From Escherichia coli (GTDB lineage Bacteria > Pseudomonadota > Gammaproteobacteria > Enterobacterales > Enterobacteriaceae), in NCBI RefSeq assembly GCF_030013205.1, contig NZ_CP122648.1: DNA of 64,000 bases. One strand, given 5' to 3'. Positions 19,044-55,695 of the stretch are shown in pieces. The first letter of the stretch is position 1, and each line of letters opens with the position of its first letter. The translations under genes were made by a program, and so were the position numbers. The notes under the pieces are model-generated. The model worked only from the letters and a program-made list of their open reading frames with translations. It did no database searches and had not been told where the DNA came from.

Positions 19044-20339
19044 TTAATTTTTCATTGCTTCGTTATGGGGCATGGTTGGGGCAAACTCGCTTAACTGTGT
19101 ATTTAACAAAGCTACCTGTGCATTATTGTTTTCAGACATCCATTTTCCGTATACCTGAAATACCATTTGCGCATCTGCATGGCCCATCTGGTTTGCTATA
19201 AATGCCGGGTTAGCACCAGCTGTCAGCGACCAGCAGGCATAAGTATGTCTCGACTGATATGATTTTCGATGGCGGAGTCCGGCACGTTTTATCGCTGCGT
19301 CCCACATCTGCCTTATTGAGTCAACGGTAAAATGGTCACCATAATTTTTTACTCTCGCTGACACTTCAGGTTGAAAAACAAAGGTGCATTTTTGTTTTTC
19401 TGTTCTGCCATACTCTCTGAGGTGAACATCAATGATATGCTCTTTGCTCAGTCTCGTTAATGTCATCTGACTCCGGAGAGCGTCGATTGCTGGCTTAATA
19501 AGATGAATGACCCGATTGGTTCCCGCCTGTGTTTTTGGTACCGTGAAACGGTCTTTTGCTAAATTTCTCCTGATCATCATTGTTCCATTTTTCAGATCTA
19601 TGTCCTCCCATCCAAGTGCACACAGCTCACCAGGGCGAACTCCAGTATAAACAGAAACACACCATAAATTTTTTGCTTGCTGATTTCTGCACGCATCGAT
19701 AAGACGGATAAATTCTTCCCGCGAAAGAGGATCCGGAATGGTTCTTGATTCCTTTAATGGCGAGATCCCCTTAAACGGATTATCTGCCAGGTAACCGTTA
19801 TCAACACCAAACTGGAACACGGCGTTAAGATTTGTCATGTAATTATTTACAGTTACAGCCGATCTCCCTGGTTGTGTAACAATATAGTTACTTTTGGGGA
19901 TCTGGTATCCAGTCAGTAACTCTTTACGAACCTCCAGTAATTTTTCTTTATTAATCGATGAGGCAAGATTTTTTTCACCGATTATGCTCAGGATATTTTT
20001 GATGACGGCACGGTATGTGTTGAGTGATGTTTTGGCGACTTCAGTTTCTTTCAGTGCCAGAAATTTTTCAGCCAGTTCTTTTATGGTTAAATCTTGTCGG
20101 GCCTCACCAAATTTTTCCAGATTGCGTGAGGAGGGAAACTGTTTTGCATAGTCGAAAACACCAGTTTTTATTGCGTAACAAACAGAGGAGCGTAGTTCAC
20201 CTGCAACGCGCCTGTTTTTTGCTGTGTCAGGAACCCCCAGATTTTCCCTGACTCTTACGTCTTTATAAACAAACCAGATACGTAATTTCCCTCCATGGTT
20301 TTCCACGCCTGTCGGATATTTCATTTCAACTTCTCTCAT
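19044..20339 (-). CDS. intQ: tyrosine-type phage integrase (apparently intact)
   Basis: 431-aa ORF adjacent to att core, with C-terminal catalytic R...HxxR...Y-type region (RHRKSYQSRHTYACW); internal ATG at 20324 (MKYPTGV) may be the true start. Confidence 0.85.
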   Translation of the reverse strand: MREVEMKYPTGVENHGGKLRIWFVYKDVRVRENLGVPDTAKNRRVAGELRSSVCYAIKTGVFDYAKQFPSSRNLEKFGEARQDLTIKELAEKFLALKETEVAKTSLNTYRAVIKNILSIIGEKNLASSINKEKLLEVRKELLTGYQIPKSNYIVTQPGRSAVTVNNYMTNLNAVFQFGVDNGYLADNPFKGISPLKESRTIPDPLSREEFIRLIDACRNQQAKNLWCVSVYTGVRPGELCALGWEDIDLKNGTMMIRRNLAKDRFTVPKTQAGTNRVIHLIKPAIDALRSQMTLTRLSKEHIIDVHLREYGRTEKQKCTFVFQPEVSARVKNYGDHFTVDSIRQMWDAAIKRAGLRHRKSYQSRHTYACWSLTAGANPAFIANQMGHADAQMVFQVYGKWMSENNNAQVALLNTQLSEFAPTMPHNEAMKN

Positions 20340-20358
20340 TAGTTAGTGTGGCTTTTAG

Positions 20359-20610
20359 TCAAGTAAGATGACGTCTTGGTCTCGCTGATGCCTGGCGCTC
20401 AATCCAGCGATCAATTTCTTCCAGGTTGTAAAAGCATGGACTGTTATCCCATGGCATACCGTCATGAGCGACATGCTTATATTCCCTTCCTTCCATAAAC
20501 GATTTTTCCCGGGCCTTTTTTAACGTACCTTTTTTTATTCCTTTCAGCGCAATTAACTGCTCTTCGGATACCCATTTGCCGGGAGAGACAATCATGATTA
20601 CTTCGCTCAT
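20359..20610 (-). CDS. excisionase-like small DNA-binding protein
   Basis: 83-aa ORF immediately upstream of int in the same orientation; basic N-terminal region. Confidence 0.7.
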   Translation of the reverse strand: MSEVIMIVSPGKWVSEEQLIALKGIKKGTLKKAREKSFMEGREYKHVAHDGMPWDNSPCFYNLEEIDRWIERQASARPRRHLT

Positions 20611-20682
20611 CGATTTCTTTATCTCTTACATCAGACGAGCGCCGGTTGCAGAATACCAGTCACAACCGGCGACAGTTGAACA

Positions 20683-23154
20683 TTAAGAATCAGCCTGACT
20701 CGGGATCAGTTTTTGCCAGATAACTGAAACGTATTTTGCCTGGTAACGGGCGTCATCAAGTGCATTATGGCGCTCACCTTCGAATGGAATAGCCGTTCTG
20801 GCATCGAAGTCTATGGCTTTCCCCAGCTCAACGATTGTGCGTACATCGCGATCGTTGTAGTAACGCCACGGGCAGGGGATCCCCTGCCGTTCGTATGAAC
20901 GGCGCAAAATCGTGTTGTCGAAGTTGGCTCCATTTCCCCAAACCTGAACAAAAAATTCACCGGAGTTTTCGTCGATAAATTCTCGCAATTGTAACAGTGC
21001 ATCATCTAACGGGATTTCATCGGTCATAATGGCAGATTGCGCTTCGCGTGATTGCTTAAGCCACCATTTAATGGTGTCCCGATCAATGACTCCGCCAGCA
21101 GTTTCCAGATCGATAGTCTTACTAAATTCCGGTCCCATATCTCCGGTTTGCGGATCGAAAAATATTGCACCTATTGAGATGATCGGGGCATCAGGATTTT
21201 TTCCCATGGTTTCAAGGTCGATCATTAGATGGTCACACGTCCTGCTGGTGGATGTGATTTCGTGATGACCGTTCACCTTAATTGGGTGATCTGCCGTCTC
21301 GCCAGTTTCATTATCGCTATTGTGATGCTGATTGCCGCCAGTGTTCTCCTTGTGTGGATGTTCAGCGCCTTCCATTTCCTCCGGATCATCTTCCTGAACT
21401 TCAACCTGATACTCTTCATCGAATGTTTCTTGGTATGTTGCGTCGCCCATCACCGCGCCACAATCAGGGCAGTTGCCGCCGCCGGTCTGACCGCAGGCGG
21501 TGCAGACTTTTTCCACTTCCTGTTGCGCTACTGGTTCAGGCTGTTTCGTTTCTGGCTCGTTTTGTAACGCATTTGGACTGTTTTGTTCCGCTTTTTGGTA
21601 GTTCCGTTCCGATTCATGCTGGTTCTGGTTCACAGAATCGCGGGTCTGGAGCCCCTTAACCCATTTCGGATCATTCGGGTCACTAATCCCTTCAACAAAT
21701 TCACCACGTGATGCAGCAAGCAACTTATCGGCGTCAGGCTGGCTGATATTGGCTGCCTGCATAATTTTGTTTACTTCGTCAGCGGTAACTTTTATCGGCT
21801 CTGGTTGTTCTGAATCTTCAGCGGTATCTACATTTTGCGGTAAGCCCGTGTATGTGCCATTTTTTCGGGCAAAATATTCTTCTTTTGTGATTTCAGTGGC
21901 GCCAGCAGCCAGTGCCTTATCCAGACCAGAGAGTTTGTTTGCGCGACCGTATTTTTCTCCGTCCTTATCTGCGAAGAGGAAATAGAACGGCCCCTCACGC
22001 TCTACAGATGGTTCAGCTTCCGGCGCGGTTTCATTTTTTGGGATATCAGATACCTCAGTTTCCACTGCATCAGTTTGTGTTTCTGATGACTGGAGAACAT
22101 CAACAGTGCCCAGGTCTGTTTCTTCATTCTCAAACACGCCCTTTGTCGTCAGGTATTCGCAGATATATTTGTTCAGTGCTACGGGATCTTTGTGAATGTC
22201 GATCGGACGCTCACGGACAAGGCCAAAAATAGTTTGGCGGTCGTAGCGAAGGGCATCAGGCTGTTTGCGCATTGATGCCGAGATACGCTTCCAGTCTTCG
22301 CGGTCGTTGTCGATAACTTCTTTTTTTGCCCAGCGATGGATGCTGCCGTCAATGTTTCCGGCATCCACATCACTAGGCCAGAGAGCGTAGGCCAGTTCGT
22401 CATCCAGTGTTTTCCATGTCTGCTTGTATTCGCGATGAATGGCAGCAATGACCGGGCTGATTTTTCCTGTTGAATTTTCAGTGTACTGTTGATTGGCTCT
22501 GGCGCGGGCGAGATCAACAACAGACGTGTATTTTCCGGTTTCCTTGCGTTCACCTTCGCGACGTTTTTTCCAGATGCGCATCTCTGCCTGAATTTCGGGC
22601 CATTTAGCACCAGGAATACATTTATGCTTAACCCACCCAATGGCGTGCAACTTAAGCTCCGGATACATGGCGTTAACTTCTGGCATTTTCATCAACGCTT
22701 CAACGATATGTCCGTCGAATGTTGCCATGTCTTCCTGCAACAATTCCTGTGCGCTAATAACCATATCAACGGTGATGTTTTCACATGTGTCGAACTTAAC
22801 CATGACAGCGTTCTGTACTTCAGGGGCCAGCTTGTCAAAAGTGACGTTCATCGGATCGGATTCAGTCTCAACCGGGACAAAAGAAGCAGACTCCTCATCC
22901 CAGCGGTTTTCCTGCATATATTCAGCATCCCATGAATCGAGGGCAGGGCGGGGTATGCCAGGTTTATCCTCGCAGACAATAAATTTATAAGCGCAGTCCT
23001 GAGCAGCCGGATAATGTTCCAGGAATTGCCAGTGAAATTTTGCTCGAGCACGGCGTTCGTCGCCAGCTTCAATGGCTGTGGCTACAGCCACAGCGCCTTC
23101 TTCCCTTGTTGCCAGTTCGTCAGGAATAGCGGCGCAAATAAAGACTTTACTCAT
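20683..23154 (-). CDS. ydfE: large prophage exonuclease: acidic low-complexity N-terminal region, CxxC...CxxC zinc ribbon, C-terminal DEDDh 3'-5' exonuclease domain
   Basis: ORF 20683..23190 has a TTG at its top; likely ATG at 23154 (MSKVFICAAIPDE) with GAGG upstream. Motifs MIDLETMG (Exo I), VWGNGANFDNTIL (Exo II), ERHNALDDARYQAKY (Exo III, H-x4-D); CTACGQTGGGNCPDCGAV zinc ribbon. Symbol by synteny with the K-12 fragment next to ydfD, not by sequence match. Confidence 0.75.
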   Translation of the reverse strand: MSKVFICAAIPDELATREEGAVAVATAIEAGDERRARAKFHWQFLEHYPAAQDCAYKFIVCEDKPGIPRPALDSWDAEYMQENRWDEESASFVPVETESDPMNVTFDKLAPEVQNAVMVKFDTCENITVDMVISAQELLQEDMATFDGHIVEALMKMPEVNAMYPELKLHAIGWVKHKCIPGAKWPEIQAEMRIWKKRREGERKETGKYTSVVDLARARANQQYTENSTGKISPVIAAIHREYKQTWKTLDDELAYALWPSDVDAGNIDGSIHRWAKKEVIDNDREDWKRISASMRKQPDALRYDRQTIFGLVRERPIDIHKDPVALNKYICEYLTTKGVFENEETDLGTVDVLQSSETQTDAVETEVSDIPKNETAPEAEPSVEREGPFYFLFADKDGEKYGRANKLSGLDKALAAGATEITKEEYFARKNGTYTGLPQNVDTAEDSEQPEPIKVTADEVNKIMQAANISQPDADKLLAASRGEFVEGISDPNDPKWVKGLQTRDSVNQNQHESERNYQKAEQNSPNALQNEPETKQPEPVAQQEVEKVCTACGQTGGGNCPDCGAVMGDATYQETFDEEYQVEVQEDDPEEMEGAEHPHKENTGGNQHHNSDNETGETADHPIKVNGHHEITSTSRTCDHLMIDLETMGKNPDAPIISIGAIFFDPQTGDMGPEFSKTIDLETAGGVIDRDTIKWWLKQSREAQSAIMTDEIPLDDALLQLREFIDENSGEFFVQVWGNGANFDNTILRRSYERQGIPCPWRYYNDRDVRTIVELGKAIDFDARTAIPFEGERHNALDDARYQAKYVSVIWQKLIPSQADS

Positions 23155-23246
23155 TTGTTTTAACCTCATGACAGATTTAAGGATGAACAAATCCCTGCCA
23201 TTGCTGGCATATAAGAATGAAACCGGATATTTATTACGGAACTGTT

Positions 23247-23438
23247 TTAAAGACCTGCCGGGATTTCGATATTATCCTGGTGAATAACTTTATCGACCGG
23301 GTAACAGTTACCGGGAATTTTCTGTTCGGTTGCTGCAGTCATACACTCCTGCATTGTCCAGTGAACACTGACTGCAATATCAACTGGCTCTCCGGAAACA
23401 AGAAAAACTGTCAGAACAAGCACAAATGCTGAATTCAT
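23247..23438 (-). CDS. ydfD: small lysis protein YdfD
   Basis: Internal start MNSAFVLVLTVFLVSGEPVDIAVSVHWTMQECM (63 aa) within ORF 23247..23492; 4-nt overlap with dicB. Confidence 0.8.
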   Translation of the reverse strand: MNSAFVLVLTVFLVSGEPVDIAVSVHWTMQECMTAATEQKIPGNCYPVDKVIHQDNIEIPAGL

Positions 23439-23623
23439 TGTGCACATCCTTTTGGCATCAGACGTAAACGAGCCAGCATTGAAACAATGCATATTTTATT
23501 TAATAGCTCCCGTTCTTGTTTTCTCTTGTTAATGGCATCTTCAGTAAATACTGGGTTACTGATAGTGACACCAATTTCAAAACAACCTTCAGACGTATTA
23601 ACGTTTGGTAATAACGTTTTCAT
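23435..23623 (-). CDS. dicB: cell-division inhibitor DicB
   Basis: 62-aa internal ORF MKTLLPNVNTSEGCFEIGVTISNPVFTEDAINKRKQERELLNKICIVSMLARLRLMPKGCAQ inside ORF 23435..23728. Confidence 0.85.
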   Translation of the reverse strand: MKTLLPNVNTSEGCFEIGVTISNPVFTEDAINKRKQERELLNKICIVSMLARLRLMPKGCAQ

Positions 23624-23791
23624 TATCGCGTCCTCAACAATGAATTTTGTGATGCAGTGCCTGGTGCCTCCAGGTGACGTTAACCAGTTAACAATTAACG
23701 CCGGATACAGAGAATCCACCCATAACACTGTTTTTGGTTTTAACTGTTCCGCGTGCGCTCAGCCGCATTCACCACATCACAAAATTCACTT

Positions 23792-23849
23792 TAAAAAGGG
23801 CAGCAGAGCAGTCACGGAGTAAAACTGATACCGCCAAACGTCACCAGAA
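23792..23849 (-). ncRNA. dicF: DicF small RNA (ftsZ-targeting)
   Basis: Reverse complement reads TTTCTGGTGACGTTTGGCGGTATCAGTTTTACTCCGTGACTGCTCTGCTGCCCTTTTT, between ydfC and dicB as in K-12. Confidence 0.75.
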
Positions 23850-24190
23850 AATTGATAACAGAGGGCGTTGCAGCGGGGTTGTCACTTAAGCGTATGGTCA
23901 ACCTGACAACCCGGTGTCCTCAACGGGGAAGGAATAACCCCGCCATACTTACCGCCGCGCCATTTCGCGGGTTGCCACAACCGGAAGCGCACGGTCGACG
24001 AAAATTTAACGACAGGCTATCTATGAACCAGCTACCTCGCCGTGCGCTTTCGCGTTATGGTCTGACTTTTCAGGGAAATATCCTTTCAGTAAACTGTCAG
24101 TTCCGGATGCGCACCCGTGTCCGGCGCACGCACTCCACCTCACCCGTGGAGAACTCCTTAATTACTAACCTTAGCTTTGTTGATTAGCTA

Positions 24191-24409
24191 CTAACGCGGG
24201 TATGTAATCATTCTGGCAATGCTTAATGCCGCTGCTTTTTCCAGATTGGTGATATCCTGCTCCAGAGCGGACAGATTTTCAGCCTGCTTAGCCCTGGCTT
24301 CATTAGCCCATTTCAGATCCTGCGCTGCATTAATTTTCTGGCGCATCCACTCATAAAGTTCATCATCGGTATAGTCTGGCGCGATGATGACGGGTTCTCG
24401 TTTCTGCAT
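24191..24409 (-). CDS. ydfC: Qin prophage protein YdfC
   Basis: 72-aa ORF MQKREPVIIAPDYTDDELYEWMRQ...; position between ydfB and dicF. Confidence 0.75.
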   Translation of the reverse strand: MQKREPVIIAPDYTDDELYEWMRQKINAAQDLKWANEARAKQAENLSALEQDITNLEKAAALSIARMITYPR

Positions 24410-24438
24410 ACTGATTCCTCGCGGTGCTGTTTCGCTTA

Positions 24439-24567
24439 TCAGCCGTTAGATTTTGCCGAACTGGAAAGCGCCTGTTTAAACTCACTGAAGCTGAGAGCTT
24501 CTTCGCCTTCGGCAAGGCCTTCGAAGTATTCTTCGTAAGCCTTTTCCATGATTGTGTCGAAATCCAT
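24439..24567 (-). CDS. ydfB: Qin prophage protein YdfB (42 aa)
   Basis: Manual translation of the minus strand: MDFDTIMEKAYEEYFEGLAEGEEALSFSEFKQALSSSAKSNG; below the ORF-track size cutoff; coordinates +/-1 nt. Confidence 0.7.
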   Translation of the reverse strand: MDFDTIMEKAYEEYFEGLAEGEEALSFSEFKQALSSSAKSNG

Positions 24568-24568
24568 A

Positions 24569-24724
24569 TCACTCACCTGAGTTTCTTTCCAGCCAGCGAC
24601 GGGCACCATTTTCGGTTTTAAACGTTTTGCTTTTGGTATACGTCATTGCGGTGAACGTGCCGTCCTGGTTTGGAAACACGCCGTACACCAGAGATTCGTT
24701 GTTGCCAAGATCGATAGTATCCAT
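24569..24724 (-). CDS. ydfA: Qin prophage protein YdfA (51 aa)
   Basis: Internal start MDTIDLGNNESLVYGVFPNQDGTFTAMTYTKSKTFKTENGARRWLERNSGE within ORF 24569..24802. Confidence 0.75.
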   Translation of the reverse strand: MDTIDLGNNESLVYGVFPNQDGTFTAMTYTKSKTFKTENGARRWLERNSGE

Positions 24725-24890
24725 GCTGACCTCATTTCCCCTTAACGCTGGGGTAGCGGAACTGTTTGCTGAGAACACCGTGCGGTGTGTTGATGCAAAC
24801 AAGATTAGCCATGACTAACATATCGGTCAAGTGATTTTGTATGCTATAGCTAACATAATTGATGTGGTAAAAGATAACTCATTGATGATG

Positions 24891-25298
24891 TTATCTTTTA
24901 TTTGTCCGCTGACGGGCTTTTAGTAATTCTTCAAAGAGTTTATTGAAGTTTTTTACTCGAGCTCGCATTTCGGCGAGCTGGGTATCCTGTTCTGATTCTG
25001 GCAGTGCATTAAACAGCTCAAGGAGCTCTAGTTCTTTGGGGGATAAGGCAACTGGCTTCTCAACAGGTGGTGTTGGTTGCTTGTCTTCATCGCCAAATAG
25101 AATCCATGTTGGTGAGCATTGCAATACTTTGCTGAGGGCAAAAAGGTTCTTCCCTGTAGGTTCACTATCACCCCGTTCCCATTGTGATACAGACACATGG
25201 GAGATTTTCAGGGCTTTAGCAAGAGAGCTTTGGGTGTGTTTGAGGTTTTTCCGACGATACCTGATGCGTTCGCCGATAGTTAAATTTTTTGTTTCCAT
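24891..25298 (-). CDS. dicA: prophage repressor DicA (HTH_XRE, P22 C2-like)
   Basis: 135-aa ORF; HTH LKHTQSSLAKALKISHVSVSQWERG; divergent from dicC. Confidence 0.9.
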   Translation of the reverse strand: METKNLTIGERIRYRRKNLKHTQSSLAKALKISHVSVSQWERGDSEPTGKNLFALSKVLQCSPTWILFGDEDKQPTPPVEKPVALSPKELELLELFNALPESEQDTQLAEMRARVKNFNKLFEELLKARQRTNKR

Positions 25299-25332
25299 AG
25301 TTAGCTAATGCTAAATCGTATTGACTATGTTT

Positions 25333-25367
25333 TTGTTAACATCTATCTTGTTAGTTATGACTAACAA
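25333..25367. promoter_or_regulatory. putative operator in dicA-dicC divergent promoter region
   Basis: Palindrome ttgttagt-tatg-actaacaa (25348..25367) plus a related half-site ttgttaac at 25333. Confidence 0.4.
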
Positions 25368-25381
25368 TAAAGGTGTTTTAA

Positions 25382-25612
25382 ATGCTTAAAACTGACGCTC
25401 TTTTGTATTTCGGTTCAAAAACAAAACTTGCACAAGCAGCAGGTATTCGTTTGGCTTCGCTTTATAGCTGGAAAGGGGATTTAGTTCCCGAAGGTCGCGC
25501 GATGCGTCTACAGGAGGCATCTGGCGGGGAGCTTCAGTATGATCCCAAAGTTTATGATGAATATCGTAAGACGAAGCGGGCGGGGCGGTTGAACAATGAA
25601 AATCACTCCTGA
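25382..25612 (+). CDS. dicC: Cro-like regulator DicC
   Basis: 76-aa ORF MLKTDALLYFGSKTKLAQAAGIRLASLYSWKG... Confidence 0.9.
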   Translation: MLKTDALLYFGSKTKLAQAAGIRLASLYSWKGDLVPEGRAMRLQEASGGELQYDPKVYDEYRKTKRAGRLNNENHS

Positions 25613-25919
25613 ACAGGCTCGTGAGGCTCTGGATGCCTGGATATGTCGACCAGGAATGACACAGGAGCAGGCGACGATATTAATCACTGAAGCATTCTGG
25701 GCTTTGAAAGAGCGCCCGAACATCGATGTTCAGCGTGTCACATATGAAGGTGGCGCGATTGATCAGCGAGCGCTTGGCGTTATCTGGTCATCACCTGACG
25801 GAGAAATACGTCGCTACGACAGTCGCCTAAACATAATCTGTCGCGAGTGCCGGAAGAGCGAAGTTATGCAGCGCATACTGGCTTTCTATCAGGGTAATTT
25901 TCAGGACGTGGCGCAGTGA
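25596..25919 (+). CDS. hypothetical prophage early-region protein
   Basis: 107-aa ATG-initiated ORF overlapping the dicC stop by 17 nt; its TGA overlaps the GTG start of the next gene (GTGAGTG). Confidence 0.45.
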   Translation: MKITPEQAREALDAWICRPGMTQEQATILITEAFWALKERPNIDVQRVTYEGGAIDQRALGVIWSSPDGEIRRYDSRLNIICRECRKSEVMQRILAFYQGNFQDVAQ

Positions 25920-26362
25920 GTGCACCGGCAACCATTCTTGATATGTGCTGTGGCAGCCGCATGTTCTGGTTCGATAAGTCTGACGAACGGGCGATATTCA
26001 GCGATATCAGAAAAGAAGGATACACATTACGCAATGGGAGACGCTTGATTATCAGCCCTGACATTATCGCAGATTTTCGTGCATTATCATTTGCAGACGC
26101 ATCTTTTTCGATGGTTGTATTAGACCCTCCGCATCTTGAGAGTGTTGGTGATAACGCCTGGATGGGAAAGAAATATGGACGGCTGAATAAAGATGCCTGG
26201 CGTGATGATTCGCGACAGAGATTTAAAGAAGCCTTTCGGGGGTTGAGGCCGCACGGCGTTCTGATTTTTTAATGGAATGAAACGCAAATACCGGTAAGCC
26301 AGATTCTGGCACTGACAGACAGAAAACCTGTTATCTGTCAACGAACAGGGAAAAAACGATAA
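25916..26362 (+). pseudogene. small SAM-dependent methyltransferase-like gene interrupted by an in-frame TAA
   Basis: LDMCCGS (motif I-like) then VVLDPPH (motif IV-like, DPPY/NPPY class) and LRPHGVLIF; TAA at 26270-26272; same frame stays open 29 more codons (WNETQIPVSQILALTDRKPVICQRTGKKR) with no start codon of its own. Confidence 0.5.
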
Positions 26363-27604: not shown

Positions 27605-27938
27605 ATACAGCGAACTCCATTGGTTTAGTTGGATATTTACTGTGCTGGACAAAAACGGTTTGCGGGGAAATCTTAGTTAAGTAGAATGACTGCGGGTGCT
27701 TGAGGCTATCTGCCTCGGGCATGGACACCAACGGCAGATAGAGAAAAGCCCCAGTTAACATTACGCGTCCTGCAAGACGCTTAACATTAATCTGAGGCCA
27801 ATTTCATGCTAGACACATGTAGGTTAGCCTCTTACGTGCCGAAAGGCACGGAGAAGCAGGCTATTGTTAACACCAAGTTGTAATGTCCCCTTTGAACCAT
27901 TCTAAAATGTCCCCAGACAATTCTCTGGGGGATTTTTC

Positions 27939-29252
27939 ATGATCAAAGAGACTGTTACGATGAGTCATAAGGAACTCCACCGACTTCAGATTATTCAGGA
28001 ACAAGCTGCGGCACGCATTGGCATTTCTATTCGGCAGGTTAAACGTCTGGTGCAACGGTATAGAAATGAAGGGCCTTCTGGTCTGGTTTCCCACCGACGT
28101 GGAAAGCGTCCTAATAATTCCTTTTCTACTGAATTCAGAGCAACAGTAATTTCACTCCTCAAAGGCCGTTACGCTGATTTTGGACCTACGTTTGCGTGCG
28201 AAAAATTGCGCGAGATACACGGTTTATCTTTATCCGTTGAAACTCTCAGAAAGTGGATGATAGAAGAGGGGTTATGGCGTGAACGCCGTCGTAAAATTGC
28301 CCGTATATATCAACGCCGCATGCGACGACCATCTTACGGTGAACTGATCCAGATTGATGGCTCACCTCATGACTGGTTTGAAAATCGAGGCCCCAGATGT
28401 ACACTGATCGTTTTCATTGATGATGCCACCAGTGCGTTGATGGCGTTGCGTTTTGTGCCTGCTGAAACAACCCGGGCTTACATGGAAACCCTCCGGGGTT
28501 ACCTTAATGATCATGGCGTACCGCTCGCTCTCTACTCTGATAGACACAGTATATTCAGGGTAAATAACCCAGAGCGGGAAGGTGAGCTGACCCAGTTCAC
28601 TCGTGCGATAAAGACACTGGGCATCGAGCCAATCCATGCCAACAGCCCGCAGGCAAAAGGGCGGGTAGAGCGCGCCAATCAGACACTACAGGACAGGCTG
28701 GTCAAAGAAATGCGGCTTCAGAATATCAGTGATATTGAAACAGCAAATGCATGGTTGCCGACCTTTATTGAAGCCTATAACAACCGGTTCGCTACGTCGC
28801 CTCGTACTACTGATAATGCTCATCTTGATGTGCACCATTCTGAAGAGGAACTGGGTTATATCTTCAGCCTACAGGCGAAGCGCGTTCTGTCTAAAAATCT
28901 CACTTTCCAGTACAAAAGCAGTGCGTTTCAGGTACGCAGTGAGGGCCGGGGATATCGACTTAGGCATTCGGTTGTTACTGTATGCGAGAACTTTGACGGT
29001 GAAATTAACGTTCTGTATGACGGGAAAGCGCTGGGCTGGGAAAAGTATGTTGATGGCCCGGAGCCTATACCACTGGATGATGAAAAGAGTGTCCATGAAC
29101 GAGTGGATAATGCCCGTATTGATTTACGCTCAAAATACTATGTTAAACCTAAAGCTGACCATCCCTGGCTTACGCGCCGAACGCAAAGTCATCAGCAAGT
29201 TAAGCCCCCGAAGTTACCTAAAAAGAAGCCTGATCCCGATAAAAAAGATTGA
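27939..29252 (+). CDS. DDE transposase with N-terminal HTH and integrase-core (rve) domain, IS481/ISNCY-like
   Basis: 437-aa ORF; HTH IGISIRQVKRLVQRY; catalytic-looking residues in LIQIDGSPHD, LALYSDRHSIF and KGRVERANQTLQD; basic Lys/Pro-rich C-terminus. Confidence 0.8.
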   Translation: MIKETVTMSHKELHRLQIIQEQAAARIGISIRQVKRLVQRYRNEGPSGLVSHRRGKRPNNSFSTEFRATVISLLKGRYADFGPTFACEKLREIHGLSLSVETLRKWMIEEGLWRERRRKIARIYQRRMRRPSYGELIQIDGSPHDWFENRGPRCTLIVFIDDATSALMALRFVPAETTRAYMETLRGYLNDHGVPLALYSDRHSIFRVNNPEREGELTQFTRAIKTLGIEPIHANSPQAKGRVERANQTLQDRLVKEMRLQNISDIETANAWLPTFIEAYNNRFATSPRTTDNAHLDVHHSEEELGYIFSLQAKRVLSKNLTFQYKSSAFQVRSEGRGYRLRHSVVTVCENFDGEINVLYDGKALGWEKYVDGPEPIPLDDEKSVHERVDNARIDLRSKYYVKPKADHPWLTRRTQSHQQVKPPKLPKKKPDPDKKD

Positions 29253-30578: not shown

Positions 30579-30818
30579 ATGGGTAGCATTAACCTGCGTA
30601 TTGACGATGAACTTAAAGCGCGTTCTTACGCCGCGCTTGAAAAAATGGGTGTAACTCCTTCTGAAGCGCTTCGTCTCATGCTCGAGTATATCGCTGACAA
30701 TGAACGCTTGCCGTTCAAACAGACACTCCTGAGTGATGAAGATGCTGAACTTGTGGAGATAGTGAAAGAACGGCTTCGTAATCCTAAGCCAGTACGTGTG
30801 ACGCTGGATGAACTCTGA
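30579..30818 (+). CDS. relB: RelB antitoxin (RHH)
   Basis: 79-aa ORF MGSINLRIDDELKARSYAALEKMGVTPSEALRLMLEYIADNERLPF... Confidence 0.95.
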   Translation: MGSINLRIDDELKARSYAALEKMGVTPSEALRLMLEYIADNERLPFKQTLLSDEDAELVEIVKERLRNPKPVRVTLDEL

Positions 30819-31105
30819 TGGCGTATTTTCTGGATTTTGACGAGCGGGCACTAAAGGAATGGCGAAAGCTGGGCTCGACGGTACGTGAACAGTTGAAAAA
30901 GAAGCTGGTTGAAGTACTTGAGTCACCCCGGATTGAAGCAAACAAGCTCCGTGGTATGCCTGATTGTTACAAGATTAAGCTCCGGTCTTCAGGCTATCGC
31001 CTTGTATACCAGGTTATAGACGAGAAAGTTGTCGTTTTCGTGATTTCTGTTGGGAAAAGAGAACGCTCGGAAGTATATAGCGAGGCGGTCAAACGCATTC
31101 TCTGA
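30818..31105 (+). CDS. relE: RelE mRNA interferase toxin
   Basis: 95-aa ORF MAYFLDFDERALKEWRKLGSTVREQLKKKLVEVLESPRIEANKLRG...; start overlaps relB stop (ATGA). Confidence 0.95.
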   Translation: MAYFLDFDERALKEWRKLGSTVREQLKKKLVEVLESPRIEANKLRGMPDCYKIKLRSSGYRLVYQVIDEKVVVFVISVGKRERSEVYSEAVKRIL

Positions 31106-31176
31106 ACCAAAGCATGACATCTCTGTTTCGCACCGAAGGTGACACTTCTGCTTTGCGTTGACAGGAGAAGCAGGCT

Positions 31177-31332
31177 ATGAAGCAGCAAAAGGCGATGTTA
31201 ATCGCCCTGATCGTCATCTGTTTAACCGTCATAGTGACGGCACTGGTAACGAGGAAAGACCTCTGCGAGGTACGAATCCGAACCGGCCAGACGGAGGTCG
31301 CTGTCTTCACAGCTTACGAACCTGAGGAGTAA
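31177..31332 (+). CDS. hokD: Hok-family membrane toxin HokD (RelF)
   Basis: Manual translation: MKQQKAMLIALIVICLTVIVTALVTRKDLCEVRIRTGQTEVAVFTAYEPEE (51 aa); below the ORF-track cutoff. Confidence 0.85.
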   Translation: MKQQKAMLIALIVICLTVIVTALVTRKDLCEVRIRTGQTEVAVFTAYEPEE

Positions 31333-31401
31333 GAGACCCGGCGGGGGAGAAATCCCTCGCCACCTCTGATGTGGCAGGCATCCTCAACGCACCCGCACTT
31401 A

Positions 31402-31430
31402 ACCCGCTTCGGCGGGTTTTTGTTTTTATT
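31402..31430 (+). terminator. rho-independent terminator after relBE-hokD
   Basis: cccgc-ttcg-gcggg hairpin followed by tttttgtttttatttt. Confidence 0.6.
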
Positions 31431-31548
31431 TTCAACGCGTTTGAAGTTCTGGACGGTGCCGGAATAGAATCAAAAATACTTAAGTAGCGCGCAGGGATAA
31501 GAGGGATGGTCCCTTAAAGGGGAGAGCTAATTATCCGGAAGGATTCTG

Positions 31549-31800
31549 ATGATGAACATCGAAGAACTGCGTAAAATTTTTTGTGAAGATGGCCTCTATG
31601 CTGTGTGCGTTGAAAATGGAAATCTTGTTAGTCATTACCGCATTATGTGTTTGCGAAAGAATGGGGCTGCGTTAATTAATTTTGTGGATGCTCGGGTCAC
31701 GGACGGATTTATCTTGCGCGAAGGTGAGTTTGTCACTTCATTACAGGCATTGAAAGAGATCGGAATAAAAGCTGGCTTTTCTGCTTTTTCAGGAGAATAA
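31549..31800 (+). CDS. rem: Qin prophage protein Rem
   Basis: 83-aa ORF MMNIEELRKIFCEDGLYAVCVENGNLVSHYRIMCLRKNGAALINFVDARV... Confidence 0.8.
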   Translation: MMNIEELRKIFCEDGLYAVCVENGNLVSHYRIMCLRKNGAALINFVDARVTDGFILREGEFVTSLQALKEIGIKAGFSAFSGE

Positions 31801-34596: not shown

Positions 34597-34896
34597 AAAA
34601 ATTCCTTAATACTGATAACTTGGCGCACTATACACACGTTCCTGAAGAAAGCTATAGTTTTTTGATGGGGTTGAAGATGGCTGGATGTCTAAAATAAACA
34701 TTGCTTCATATGTTCAACTATGCGTTAATGATTGCGTCGGTTTGAAGAACAGACGATATACGAAGTAGTTTACTAAAGCAGTTCTCATTTCAGGTGTTAT
34801 TCACTTATTCCTTCTTTGAGTCTCTCCAATTAAGTACGAAGTCGTTTCTGTTATGCAAACCATTTATGCCGAAAGGCTCAAGTTAAGGAATGTAGA

Positions 34897-35112
34897 ATGT
34901 CAAATAAAATGACTGGTTTAGTAAAATGGTTTAACGCTGATAAAGGTTTCGGCTTTATTTCTCCTGTTGATGGTAGTAAAGATGTGTTTGTGCATTTTTC
35001 TGCGATTCAGAATGATAATTATCGAACCTTATTTGAAGGTCAAAAGGTTACCTTCTCTATAGAGAGTGGTGCTAAAGGTCCTGCAGCAGCAAATGTCATC
35101 ATTACTGATTAA
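34897..35112 (+). CDS. cspB: cold-shock protein CspB
   Basis: 71-aa [54 protein letters not shown]... Confidence 0.9.
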
Positions 35113-35475
35113 AATTCATCGCTCGTCTGTATACGATAACGAAGAAGGCTGATGCCTGAGTAGAGATACGGACAGAGTAGTGAATATTGGATCTCTTTAA
35201 TAAAAAGTAAGGAGGTCCAATACATGAAACAATGGCTAGCATATTTGGCAAAATCTTAATCAGGAAAAGTATGCTAACCATTGTGGTGAAGTGCAGGTTT
35301 GCTGAATGAATAGTTTTACAGCAGAAGCTAACTGCTGGCATGGCAAAACAAAGTGCGTAAGTGGATGACTCCCACAAAAAGCACCACAATCTCAAACCCG
35401 CTCAGGCGGGTTTTTTATTATCTGCTTTAAATATATTATTAAAATATAAAAAATACTTGTTACTAATAAAATCAA

Positions 35476-37421: not shown

Positions 37422-37782
37422 GGTAATATTAAATCGGAACATTTACATCGCGGAATGTAAAATTTAAATAAAAAGGACTCTTCCATGAGCCAAAATTCCT
37501 GAAATCTTAAGGGTAAGATAAAAGGTCTTAATCAGAATGACACGTTTTATTAATAAATAAAGCTATTCTTTCATTGCTGTGTTTTTCTTTACAAAAGTAA
37601 TCCTTGCTATGGGTGGTTAATCATGCGTTAATGGTGTTCTGGTTTGTTACAAATTTATCTGAAGCAGTCATTGTTATAATTTTATTATTTGTACCTCTTG
37701 AGATTTCCTTGTTGGTTTTTCTCTCTGATATTTTTTTCGGACCATTCTGCCCAAGGGCTAATTTCTTCAAAAGGTAATAATT

Positions 37783-37995
37783 ATGTCTAACAAAATGACT
37801 GGTTTAGTGAAATGGTTTAACCCTGAAAAAGGTTTTGGTTTCATCACGCCGAAAGATGGCAGCAAAGATGTGTTTGTCCATTTCTCAGCAATTCAGAGCA
37901 ACGATTTCAAAACATTAACTGAGAATCAGGAAGTTGAATTTGGTATTGAGAACGGACCTAAAGGTCCTGCCGCTGTTCATGTAGTGGCGCTTTGA
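37783..37995 (+). CDS. cspI: cold-shock protein CspI
   Basis: 70-aa [54 protein letters not shown]... Confidence 0.9.
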
Positions 37996-38197
37996 GGTAG
38001 ACAATATTACAAACCATATTCACTTTAGATGCCCGTGTTGTCATGGTTCCCAGTATAGAACATCATCTTTTGATGTTTCTGACATGAATCCTTTCGGGGC
38101 AAAATGTATCTTTTGTAAATCAATGATGATTACATTTGATAATATTTCACAATACTTAAATGCCAGCCGTCTGTCGTTGGATTTGAAAAAGTGAAAA

Positions 38198-43904: not shown

Positions 43905-44479
43905 TGGCATTCAGAATGAGTGAACAACCACGGACCATAAAAATTTATAATCTGCTGGCCGGAACTAATGAATTTATTGGTGAAGGTGATGCATATATTC
44001 CGCCTCATACAGGTCTGCCAGCAAACAGTACCGATATTGCACCGCCAGATATTCCGGCTGGCTTCGTGGCTGTTTTCAACAGTGATGAGTCATCGTGGCA
44101 TCTCGTTGAAGATCATCGGGGTAAAACGGTTTATGACGTGGCTTCCGGCGACGCGTTATTTATTTCTGAACTCGGTCCGTTACCGGAAAATGTTACCTGG
44201 TTATCGCCGGAAGGGGAGTTTCAGAAGTGGAACGGCACAGCCTGGGTGAAGGATACGGAAGCAGAAAAACTGTTCCGGATCCGGGAGGCGGAAGAAACAA
44301 AAAACAACCTGATGCAGGTAGCCAGTGAGCATATTGCGCCGCTTCAGGATGCTGCAGATCTGGAAATCGCAACGGAGGAAGAAATCTCGTTGCTGGAAGC
44401 ATGGAAAAAGTATCGGGTATTGCTGAACCGTGTTGATACGTCAACTGCACAGGATATTGAATGGCCAGCACTGCCGTAG
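43904..44479 (+). CDS. tfaQ: tail fibre assembly protein
   Basis: 191-aa [57 protein letters not shown]... Confidence 0.9.
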
Positions 44480-55381: not shown

Positions 55382-55429
55382 GCTCCGTTTAACATTCATT
55401 GAGAAAACTGATGCTACTGTGTCAACGAT

Positions 55430-55527
55430 CCGTTATCAGTGCAGGAAAATGCCTGTTAGCGTAAAAGCAAAACACAAATCTATCCATGCAAGCATTCACC
55501 GCCGGTTTACTGGCGGTTTTTTTTCGC
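55430..55527 (+). ncRNA. candidate small RNA ending at an orphan terminator (possibly MgrR)
   Basis: Strong + strand terminator CCGCC-ggtttact-GGCGG-T8 at 55497..55527 with no upstream ORF in the dgcZ-mgtS intergenic region; 5' end not defined. Confidence 0.4.
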
Positions 55528-55599
55528 CGTCATAAAAATCAGGCCCCTTGTACACAGTTGTAACAAGGGGCCGGTTAGGTGAGGGATTATCTCCGTTCA

Positions 55600-55695
55600 T
55601 TAGTCATCCCATTTGTGGCTGAAATACGCGGCCAGAAAACCAGAAAATAAAATTATTCCCAGTACGGCCATAAAAACATTCATATTACCCAGCAT
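55600..55695 (-). CDS. mgtS: small membrane protein MgtS (YneM, 31 aa)
   Basis: Manual translation MLGNMNVFMAVLGIILFSGFLAAYFSHKWDD with GGAGG 7 nt upstream; below the ORF-track cutoff. Confidence 0.8.
   Translation of the reverse strand: MLGNMNVFMAVLGIILFSGFLAAYFSHKWDD

Follow-up and report, generated by a model that had tools for sequence, protein, structure and literature searches.

The stretch of Escherichia coli DNA analysed here (the window; 64,000 nucleotides) carries, in the order dicC, dicA, dicBp, ydfA, ydfB, ydfC, dicF, dicB and ydfD, the genes and control elements of a dicBF operon, followed by genes for an exonuclease, an excisionase and an integrase (Table 1). Small minus-strand ORFs run in series across 22400-24800 in the ORF listing. 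Positions 22388-25782 (minus strand) align with 1,647,450-1,650,844 of K-12 MG1655 with five mismatches in 3,395 nt and no gaps (99.85% identity), and the frame is intact throughout the operon, with no frameshift, stop codon or insertion relative to K-12. A first-pass annotation had recognised dicF, dicB and ydfD as a cluster at 23247-23849, and it proves correct in names, limits and order: Rfam, Pfam and the K-12 alignment all agree on the three members, its outer limits are the stop codon of ydfD and the 5' end that Rfam gives for dicF, and it lies canonically 3' of dicA, dicBp and ydfABC, with the exonuclease gene next in the sense of transcription.

Table 1. Features of the dicBF locus and of neighbouring prophage genes in the window
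Feature	Position	Strand	Remarks
integrase, 426 aa, intact intQ counterpart	19044-20324	-	Arm-DNA-bind_2 and Phage_integrase; K_EC180 annotation
excisionase, 83 aa	20359-20610	-	Pfam DUF1233, 108 bits; K_EC180 annotation
exonuclease, full-length, 823 aa, intact ydfE counterpart	20683-23154	-	ORF; K_EC180 WP_000048342.1
terminator-like hairpin (23209-23196) and T-rich tail, 3' of ydfD	23186-23209	-	consensus scan; probable end of the 1,608-nt transcript
ydfD, predicted lysis protein/IspG inhibitor, 63 aa	23247-23438	-	62/63 vs K-12; 4-nt overlap with dicB
mismatch to K-12 in ydfD	23360		R27W
dicB, predicted MinC-dependent division inhibitor, 62 aa	23435-23623	-	62/62 vs K-12 DicB
dicF-dicB spacer and dicB ribosome-binding site	23624-23797	-	K-12-identical
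dicF sRNA, 53 nt	23798-23850	-	K-12 annotation transfer, 52/53 identical; U-tail to 23793
mismatch to K-12 in dicF	23802		C49U
5' leader of 190-nt DicF precursor, RNase III cut to RNase E cut	23851-23982	-	probable coordinates; K-12-identical
mismatch to K-12 in ydfC-dicF spacer	24042		no known effect
ydfC, 72 aa	24191-24409	-	identical to K-12
ydfB, 42 aa	24439-24567	-	identical to K-12
ydfA (DUF1391, Pfam PF07151), 51 aa	24569-24724	-	identical to K-12
dicBp promoter and overlapping operator-like sites	24795-24860	-	K-12-identical; read from sequence
dicA, predicted P22 C2-like dicBp repressor, 135 aa	24891-25298	-	134/135 vs K-12; HTH_3, 60 bits
mismatch to K-12 in dicA	25131		silent
mismatch to K-12 in dicA	25227		R24S
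dicA-dicC intergenic operator region, OR-like	25299-25381		K-12-identical
dicC, Cro-like regulator, 76 aa	25382-25612	+	identical to K-12 DicC; Pfam P22_Cro, 44.1 bits
relB	30579-30818	+	exact K-12 DNA
relE	30818-31105	+	exact K-12 DNA
hokD	31177-31332	+	exact K-12 DNA
rem, DicA antirepressor	31549-31800	+	exact K-12 DNA; function per PMC10448788

The chromosomal site, gene order and strands are those of the dicBF operon (dicA b1570 to ydfD b1576) in the cryptic prophage Qin of K-12 MG1655, and the alignment of the window with K-12 reaches the flank past intQ. Compared with the chromosome of the swine strain K_EC180, the window is 99.98% identical across 42.6 kb. The RefSeq annotation of that chromosome reads, from rspB, integrase, excisionase, a 2,472-nt 'exonuclease', ydfD, dicB, ydfC, ydfB, ydfA, dicA and dicC, and beyond dicC come relB, relE, hokD and rem, with a fusion of a truncated terminase gene to a tail-fibre gene after them. 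Integration by rspB/ynfP, the Qin gene order and the loss of morphogenesis genes are thus all found, by way of the K_EC180 locus annotation. A different DicF-bearing lambdoid prophage, such as those of the O157 type, is excluded by the ungapped identity with K-12 Qin and by the rspB flank.

The segment 23100-25700 is widely carried: megablast recovers it, at a coverage of at least 80%, in 852 of 5,426 complete E. coli genomes, where RefSeq names the matches dicA, dicC, ydfC, dicB and ydfD. There is no second copy of dicA or dicF inside the window. Elsewhere in the genome, a second locus matching the dicF probe was seen in K_EC180, and one matching the dicA probe in all 14 listed genomes; a second DicA-like repressor located elsewhere could cross-regulate dicBp.

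The products fall squarely into their families. DicB scores 136.8 bits against Pfam PF05358 (cut-off 27) and is in all likelihood the MinC-dependent inhibitor known from K-12, and YdfD scores 88.7 bits against DUF1482 (PF07358; cut-off 25). A whole-window Rfam scan places DicF (RF00039) at 23798-23849 on the minus strand with 71.1 bits (E 1e-13; gathering score 48), and the alignment covers the full model (1-52) with no non-canonical pairs flagged. The dicF-dicB spacer also resembles the Salmonella sRNA STnc100 (RF02076) at 23646-23786 on the minus strand, a sub-threshold match (34 bits, gathering score 47; E 1e-5 in a 651-nt search) that may reflect homology to a Salmonella prophage region.

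Control and transcription of the operon

The dicF-dicB-ydfD module of Qin has already been thoroughly characterised, and the mechanism worked out in K-12 (PMC5069750, PMC10448788, PMC8835842) is carried over to this copy on the strength of the identical sequences. Nothing in the data suggests a new mechanism; what is new consists of an intact left arm of the prophage and three clonal SNPs that are rare and probably neutral. For the strain itself, expression, repression and toxicity are predicted from the sequence as follows. DicA, a short P22-C2-like repressor, would occupy operators overlapping dicBp and keep the operon off, until repression is lifted by the antirepressor Rem, heat, urea or stochastic switching. 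In K-12, deletion of dicA raises dicBp activity 22-fold, and Rem derepresses the promoter 165-fold (PMC10448788). A polycistronic RNA would then be made from a start upstream of ydfA, and RNase III and RNase E would release DicF species of 190 and 53 nt, with the 3' end formed by a hairpin and U-tail. Together with Hfq, DicF would act on the ftsZ ribosome-binding site to block translation, and likewise on xylR, pykA and manX. Read-through past the DicF hairpin would allow DicB and YdfD to be made. DicB would send MinC to the septum, and YdfD, by analogy with the K-12 protein, would bind and inhibit IspG and so lead to lysis. In K-12, DicB acts via MinC, and ManYZ-dependent phages are blocked as well (PMC5069750, PMC10448788, PMC8835842, cited jointly for mechanism).

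The helix-turn-helix (HTH) domain of DicA aligns with that of P22 C2 (E 5e-20). As in other members of the DicA/P22 C2 type, a Cro/C1-type HTH is combined with cognate operators flanking the gene, and related near-palindromes occur in both intergenic regions. One of these, TGTTAGTCATAACTAACA, was read in the dicC-dicA region and is shared with the dicBp region; three operators have been reported in the dicA-dicC intergenic region (PMC10448788). Between dicA and ydfA lie two operator-like near-palindromes, TGTTAGTCATGGCTAA and TGTTAGCTATAGCATACA, the latter inside the 17-nt spacer that separates the -35 box of dicBp (TTGACC, 24830-24825) from its -10 box (TAATCT, 24807-24802). DicA in its S24 form is expected to repress dicBp in this strain. 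A consensus promoter/terminator scan passed over both dicBp and the DicF terminator, which were located by reading the sequence and by folding; the -10 box matches at only 3/6 positions and the hairpin has an internal loop.

Transcription from dicBp probably starts near 24795. With such a start, the RNase III cut at 813/814 would fall at about 23982, the 190-nt DicF species would extend to the last nucleotide of the U-tail (23793), and the 3' end of the 1,608-nt transcript would come at about 23188, just beyond the terminator-like hairpin. In K-12, Northern blots reveal a transcript terminated at dicF and a longer, 1,608-nt ydfABC-dicF-dicB-ydfD read-through transcript, and species extending to ydfE were not detected there, in agreement with the geometry proposed here (PMC5069750, PMC10448788, PMC8835842, cited jointly for mechanism). 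The sequence of the DicF precursor is that of K-12 except at nucleotide 49, and its processing is known from K-12 experiments alone.

Three derived alleles and their likely consequences

Not all five mismatches belong to the lineage sampled by the window. Those at 25131 and 24042 are peculiarities of K-12, since E. coli W agrees with the window there. Within the operon the window departs from E. coli W only at 25227, 23802 and 23360, and because DicA R24S, dicF C49U and YdfD R27W differ from both K-12 and E. coli W, these three are derived in the lineage. DicB, DicC, YdfA, YdfB, YdfC and both operator/promoter regions show no difference from K-12. The first-pass annotation had taken all three members of the cluster to be apparently intact and had named alignment to K-12 as the check; identity holds for dicB (62/62) but not for dicF, with C49U at window 23802, or for ydfD, with R27W.

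All three alleles are rare. The exact 76-nt dicF allele occurs in 17 genomes, compared with 3,053 for the K-12 allele, among 5,426 complete genomes. The exact ydfD allele is likewise present in 17 complete genomes, every one of them from pigs (K_EC180, O139:H1 strains, EC556/571/581 and an ETEC series), and 14 of these 17 carry the exact dicA allele as well. In a collection of 15 billion proteins, 106 contigs encode DicA R24S and 168 encode YdfD R27W; the K-12 form of either protein is on at least 1,000. By this distribution, the three derived alleles are a clonal signature of a small swine lineage comprising O139:H1 and ETEC strains.

Each of the three changes is judged, on sequence comparison, to be functionally conservative. 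Residue 24 of DicA aligns with Ala22 of P22 C2; it lies one position past the conserved Gln that opens helix 2 and is not in the recognition helix. R24S looks tolerable in this setting, and the positive charge lost from helix 2 of the HTH could affect a DNA backbone contact. Position 27 of YdfD is variable, with R, S, G, N, D or C among 36 aligned family members. Trp occurs there in none of the 35 aligned homologues and is found in the window allele alone. The residue sits at the boundary between two predicted domains, both of which must be intact in YdfD (PMC5069750, PMC10448788, PMC8835842, cited jointly for mechanism), and all 18 invariant columns of the 36-member alignment, including C32 and C45, are retained. 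R27W, too, looks tolerable.

The dicF substitution deserves a closer look. Nucleotides 1-48 are those of K-12, and in the Rfam consensus model positions 15-21 pair with 45-51, so that the G19-C49 pair of K-12 numbering becomes G19.U49 here. Two helices contain this nucleotide, the stem of the 3' terminator and, in the duplex predicted with ftsZ, the outermost (distal) one, and in each of them a G-C pair becomes G.U. Both alleles fold into one terminator structure by ViennaRNA, at -13.7 kcal/mol for U49 and -15.9 kcal/mol for C49. Measured against shuffled sequence, the fold has a z of -1.43 with U49 and -2.32 in K-12, and the U49 fold no longer stands out. Termination, Hfq binding or stability may be somewhat altered, because C49U costs the terminator stem 2.2 kcal/mol and the shuffle score drops; a small residual effect on termination and read-through is a possibility raised by these folding calculations.

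Could such an effect change the polarity of the operon? A weaker DicF terminator would send more read-through into dicB and ydfD, with stronger DicB-dependent phage exclusion or greater toxicity upon induction as the consequence. The hairpin is indeed 2.2 kcal/mol less stable, and since the published Northern blots show both terminated and read-through transcripts, the balance struck at this point matters. All seven outer pairs and the UUUUU tail are nevertheless retained, the sole alteration being one G-C pair turned G.U, and a single such change in a 12-pair structure would usually be modest in its effect. We therefore regard an appreciable shift of polarity as unlikely. The rare C49U allele is a natural G-C to G.U variant of the terminator stem, and it could be used to test the share of that stem in DicF biogenesis and in read-through into dicB and ydfD.

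The pairing of DicF with ftsZ appears little disturbed. With the K-12 ftsZ leader, RNAduplex finds one register for both alleles, joining ftsZ -29 to +26 with DicF 4-53, at -36.8 kcal/mol for U49 and -38.5 kcal/mol for C49 (a cost of +1.7), with nucleotide 49 opposite G-25 of ftsZ. The leader itself, from -80 to +40, is unchanged in 5,388 of the 5,426 genomes (99.3%). As judged from the supplementary oligonucleotide list of PMC5069750, from which we took the mutated DicF positions while computing the duplex independently, the dicF9 mutant, which no longer represses ftsZ, has nucleotides 32-34 changed; dicF23 carries G36C, and a compensating mutation in ftsZ rescues it; and dicF3 alters nucleotides 6-8, affecting xylR and not ftsZ (PMC5069750). 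The computed register is slightly off the published one near G36, in that the published compensatory ftsZ change, C to G, falls at -17, a nucleotide unpaired in the computed duplex. Nucleotides 32-34 and 36, shown by mutation to be required for ftsZ pairing, are unaltered here, and the complementarity to ftsZ is preserved. Divergence of dicF within its ftsZ-pairing region had been named at the outset as the observation that would overturn the assignment. C49U does formally touch that region, in the distal helix, but function is not thereby refuted, since repression of ftsZ depends on nucleotides 32-34 and 36 and position 49 is not among them.

Duplex prediction for the other validated targets manX and pykA revealed no meaningful change. 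Nucleotide 49 faces a mismatch in the manX duplex with either allele (-46.7 and -46.8 kcal/mol), and the pykA optimum shifts by 0.4 kcal/mol between alleles.

Taking these results together, we conclude with a probability of about 0.92 that the locus represents the dicBF operon of Qin, a lambdoid cryptic prophage, in its customary place by rspB in a swine-associated lineage, and that it is most likely both intact and under repression, like its K-12 counterpart. Intactness and repression are the most likely state of the module because each of the three changes is judged conservative. One might instead suppose that the operon is present but attenuated, with repressor, sRNA and lysis protein all weakened in a decaying or detoxified module. 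In support of attenuation, each of the three derived substitutions is non-silent and lies in a functional element, C49U lowers the stability of the hairpin, and W27 is absent from other members of the YdfD family. Against it, the changes themselves are mild (G.U for G-C, a variable YdfD position, and a DicA position held by Ala in P22 C2), the operon is free of frameshifts, stop codons and insertions, and the alleles are limited to one clonal swine lineage, as drift predicts. Moreover, three non-silent changes out of three have a chance of about 0.13, a rough estimate of our own that counts roughly one site in two of the 2.6-kb segment as non-synonymous or part of dicF. On balance, attenuation seems very improbable.

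We give equally little weight to the proposal that the three clonal substitutions have adaptively retuned the Qin toxin module of a swine-pathogenic lineage, whether by more dicB read-through and stronger ManYZ-dependent phage exclusion or by a softened YdfD, the alternative being neutral drift. An argument for selection from the three non-silent substitutions is unsupported, given the chance just estimated and the clonality of the alleles. An intact and repressed dicBF operon thus remains the preferred reading: the toxic module of Qin has been retained almost base-for-base in a swine ETEC/O139 lineage, a result whose value lies mainly in annotation.

The prophage arms and other toxin genes

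An intact exonuclease gene 3' of the cluster, as the first-pass annotation had described it, is present at its full length of 823 aa, while K-12 ydfE is an IS2-truncated pseudogene. Its C-terminal part, about 170 residues, matches a known domain, the Rv2179c-like 3'-5' exonuclease (Pfam, 226.5 bits), and the first 640 residues or so are without a Pfam match. Exonuclease, excisionase and integrase are cut by IS2E in K-12 Qin and intact here; ydfE and intQ are pseudogenes in K-12 because the region corresponding to window 20203-22388 was lost there to IS2E. The window therefore displays an un-truncated Qin left arm. The Qin-like prophage of E. coli W (NC_017635) resembles the window in combining the same dicBF operon with an intact exonuclease/excisionase/integrase arm, although its exonuclease gene is 2,478 nt long and that of the window 2,472 nt, or 6 nt shorter.

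In its immunity functions Qin invites comparison with the P22 immC and Gifsy-type regions. The N-terminal domain of DicA resembles P22 C2, and DicC resembles P22 Cro; like the repressors of those regions, DicA is short, is without a RecA cleavage site and is opposed by an antirepressor, Rem. Unlike those phages, Qin is defective, as seen in the truncated terminase-tail-fibre fusion of the K_EC180 annotation, so that DicA governs host-toxic genes and no productive lytic cycle.

Further toxin genes lie to the right, where relE and hokD were correctly placed in the same prophage, as exact K-12 DNA within 30579-31800. The suggestion that the prophage is unusually rich in host-lethal functions does not hold: by the K-12 annotation this is the ordinary, published gene content of Qin, since relBE, hokD and rem agree with K-12 base for base. 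Set against K-12 Qin as a whole, the window is identical in relBE, hokD, rem, dicBp and the operators, and differs by the three derived point changes.

To the right of dicC the two prophages diverge in length, with about 90 bp in K-12 and 3.3 kb in the window (a methyltransferase remnant, a hok/sok remnant and an ISNCY element). About 1.6 kb with ydaT, replication and DUF977 genes is present in E. coli W and has been lost from the window. In the alignment of 25596-26300 with E. coli W, the 1.6 kb missing to the right of dicC corresponds to a ydaT-like toxin gene, a 321-aa gene and DUF977; what remains is fused fragments together with a degraded SAM-methyltransferase gene, and K-12 ydfX is a different fusion at this place.

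At 27694-27939 an Rfam match to the sok/hok 5' region (RF01794, 104 bits) abuts an insertion sequence of the ISNCY family, and no intact hok ORF remains in that interval. This is a second hok/sok locus of Qin, disrupted by the insertion sequence; K-12 is without it because about 90 bp replaces the 3.3-kb stretch. The adjoining transposase ORF is continuous for 437 aa (27939-29252), and the K-12 gene ydfW, present as exact DNA at 29103-29252, is in frame with it and shares its stop codon, so that ydfW appears to be a 3' remnant of an ISNCY transposase gene and not an independent gene. RefSeq, in K_EC180, calls the transposase C-terminally incomplete and gives ydfW as a separate gene.

Other above-threshold Rfam matches lie at 34736-35128, 37638-38022, 44247-44445 and 55393-55606 and comprise two cspA-type thermoregulator leaders, IS009 and STnc560. 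Judging by their position, the cspA-type leaders are probably those of cspB and cspI, the cold-shock genes of Qin.
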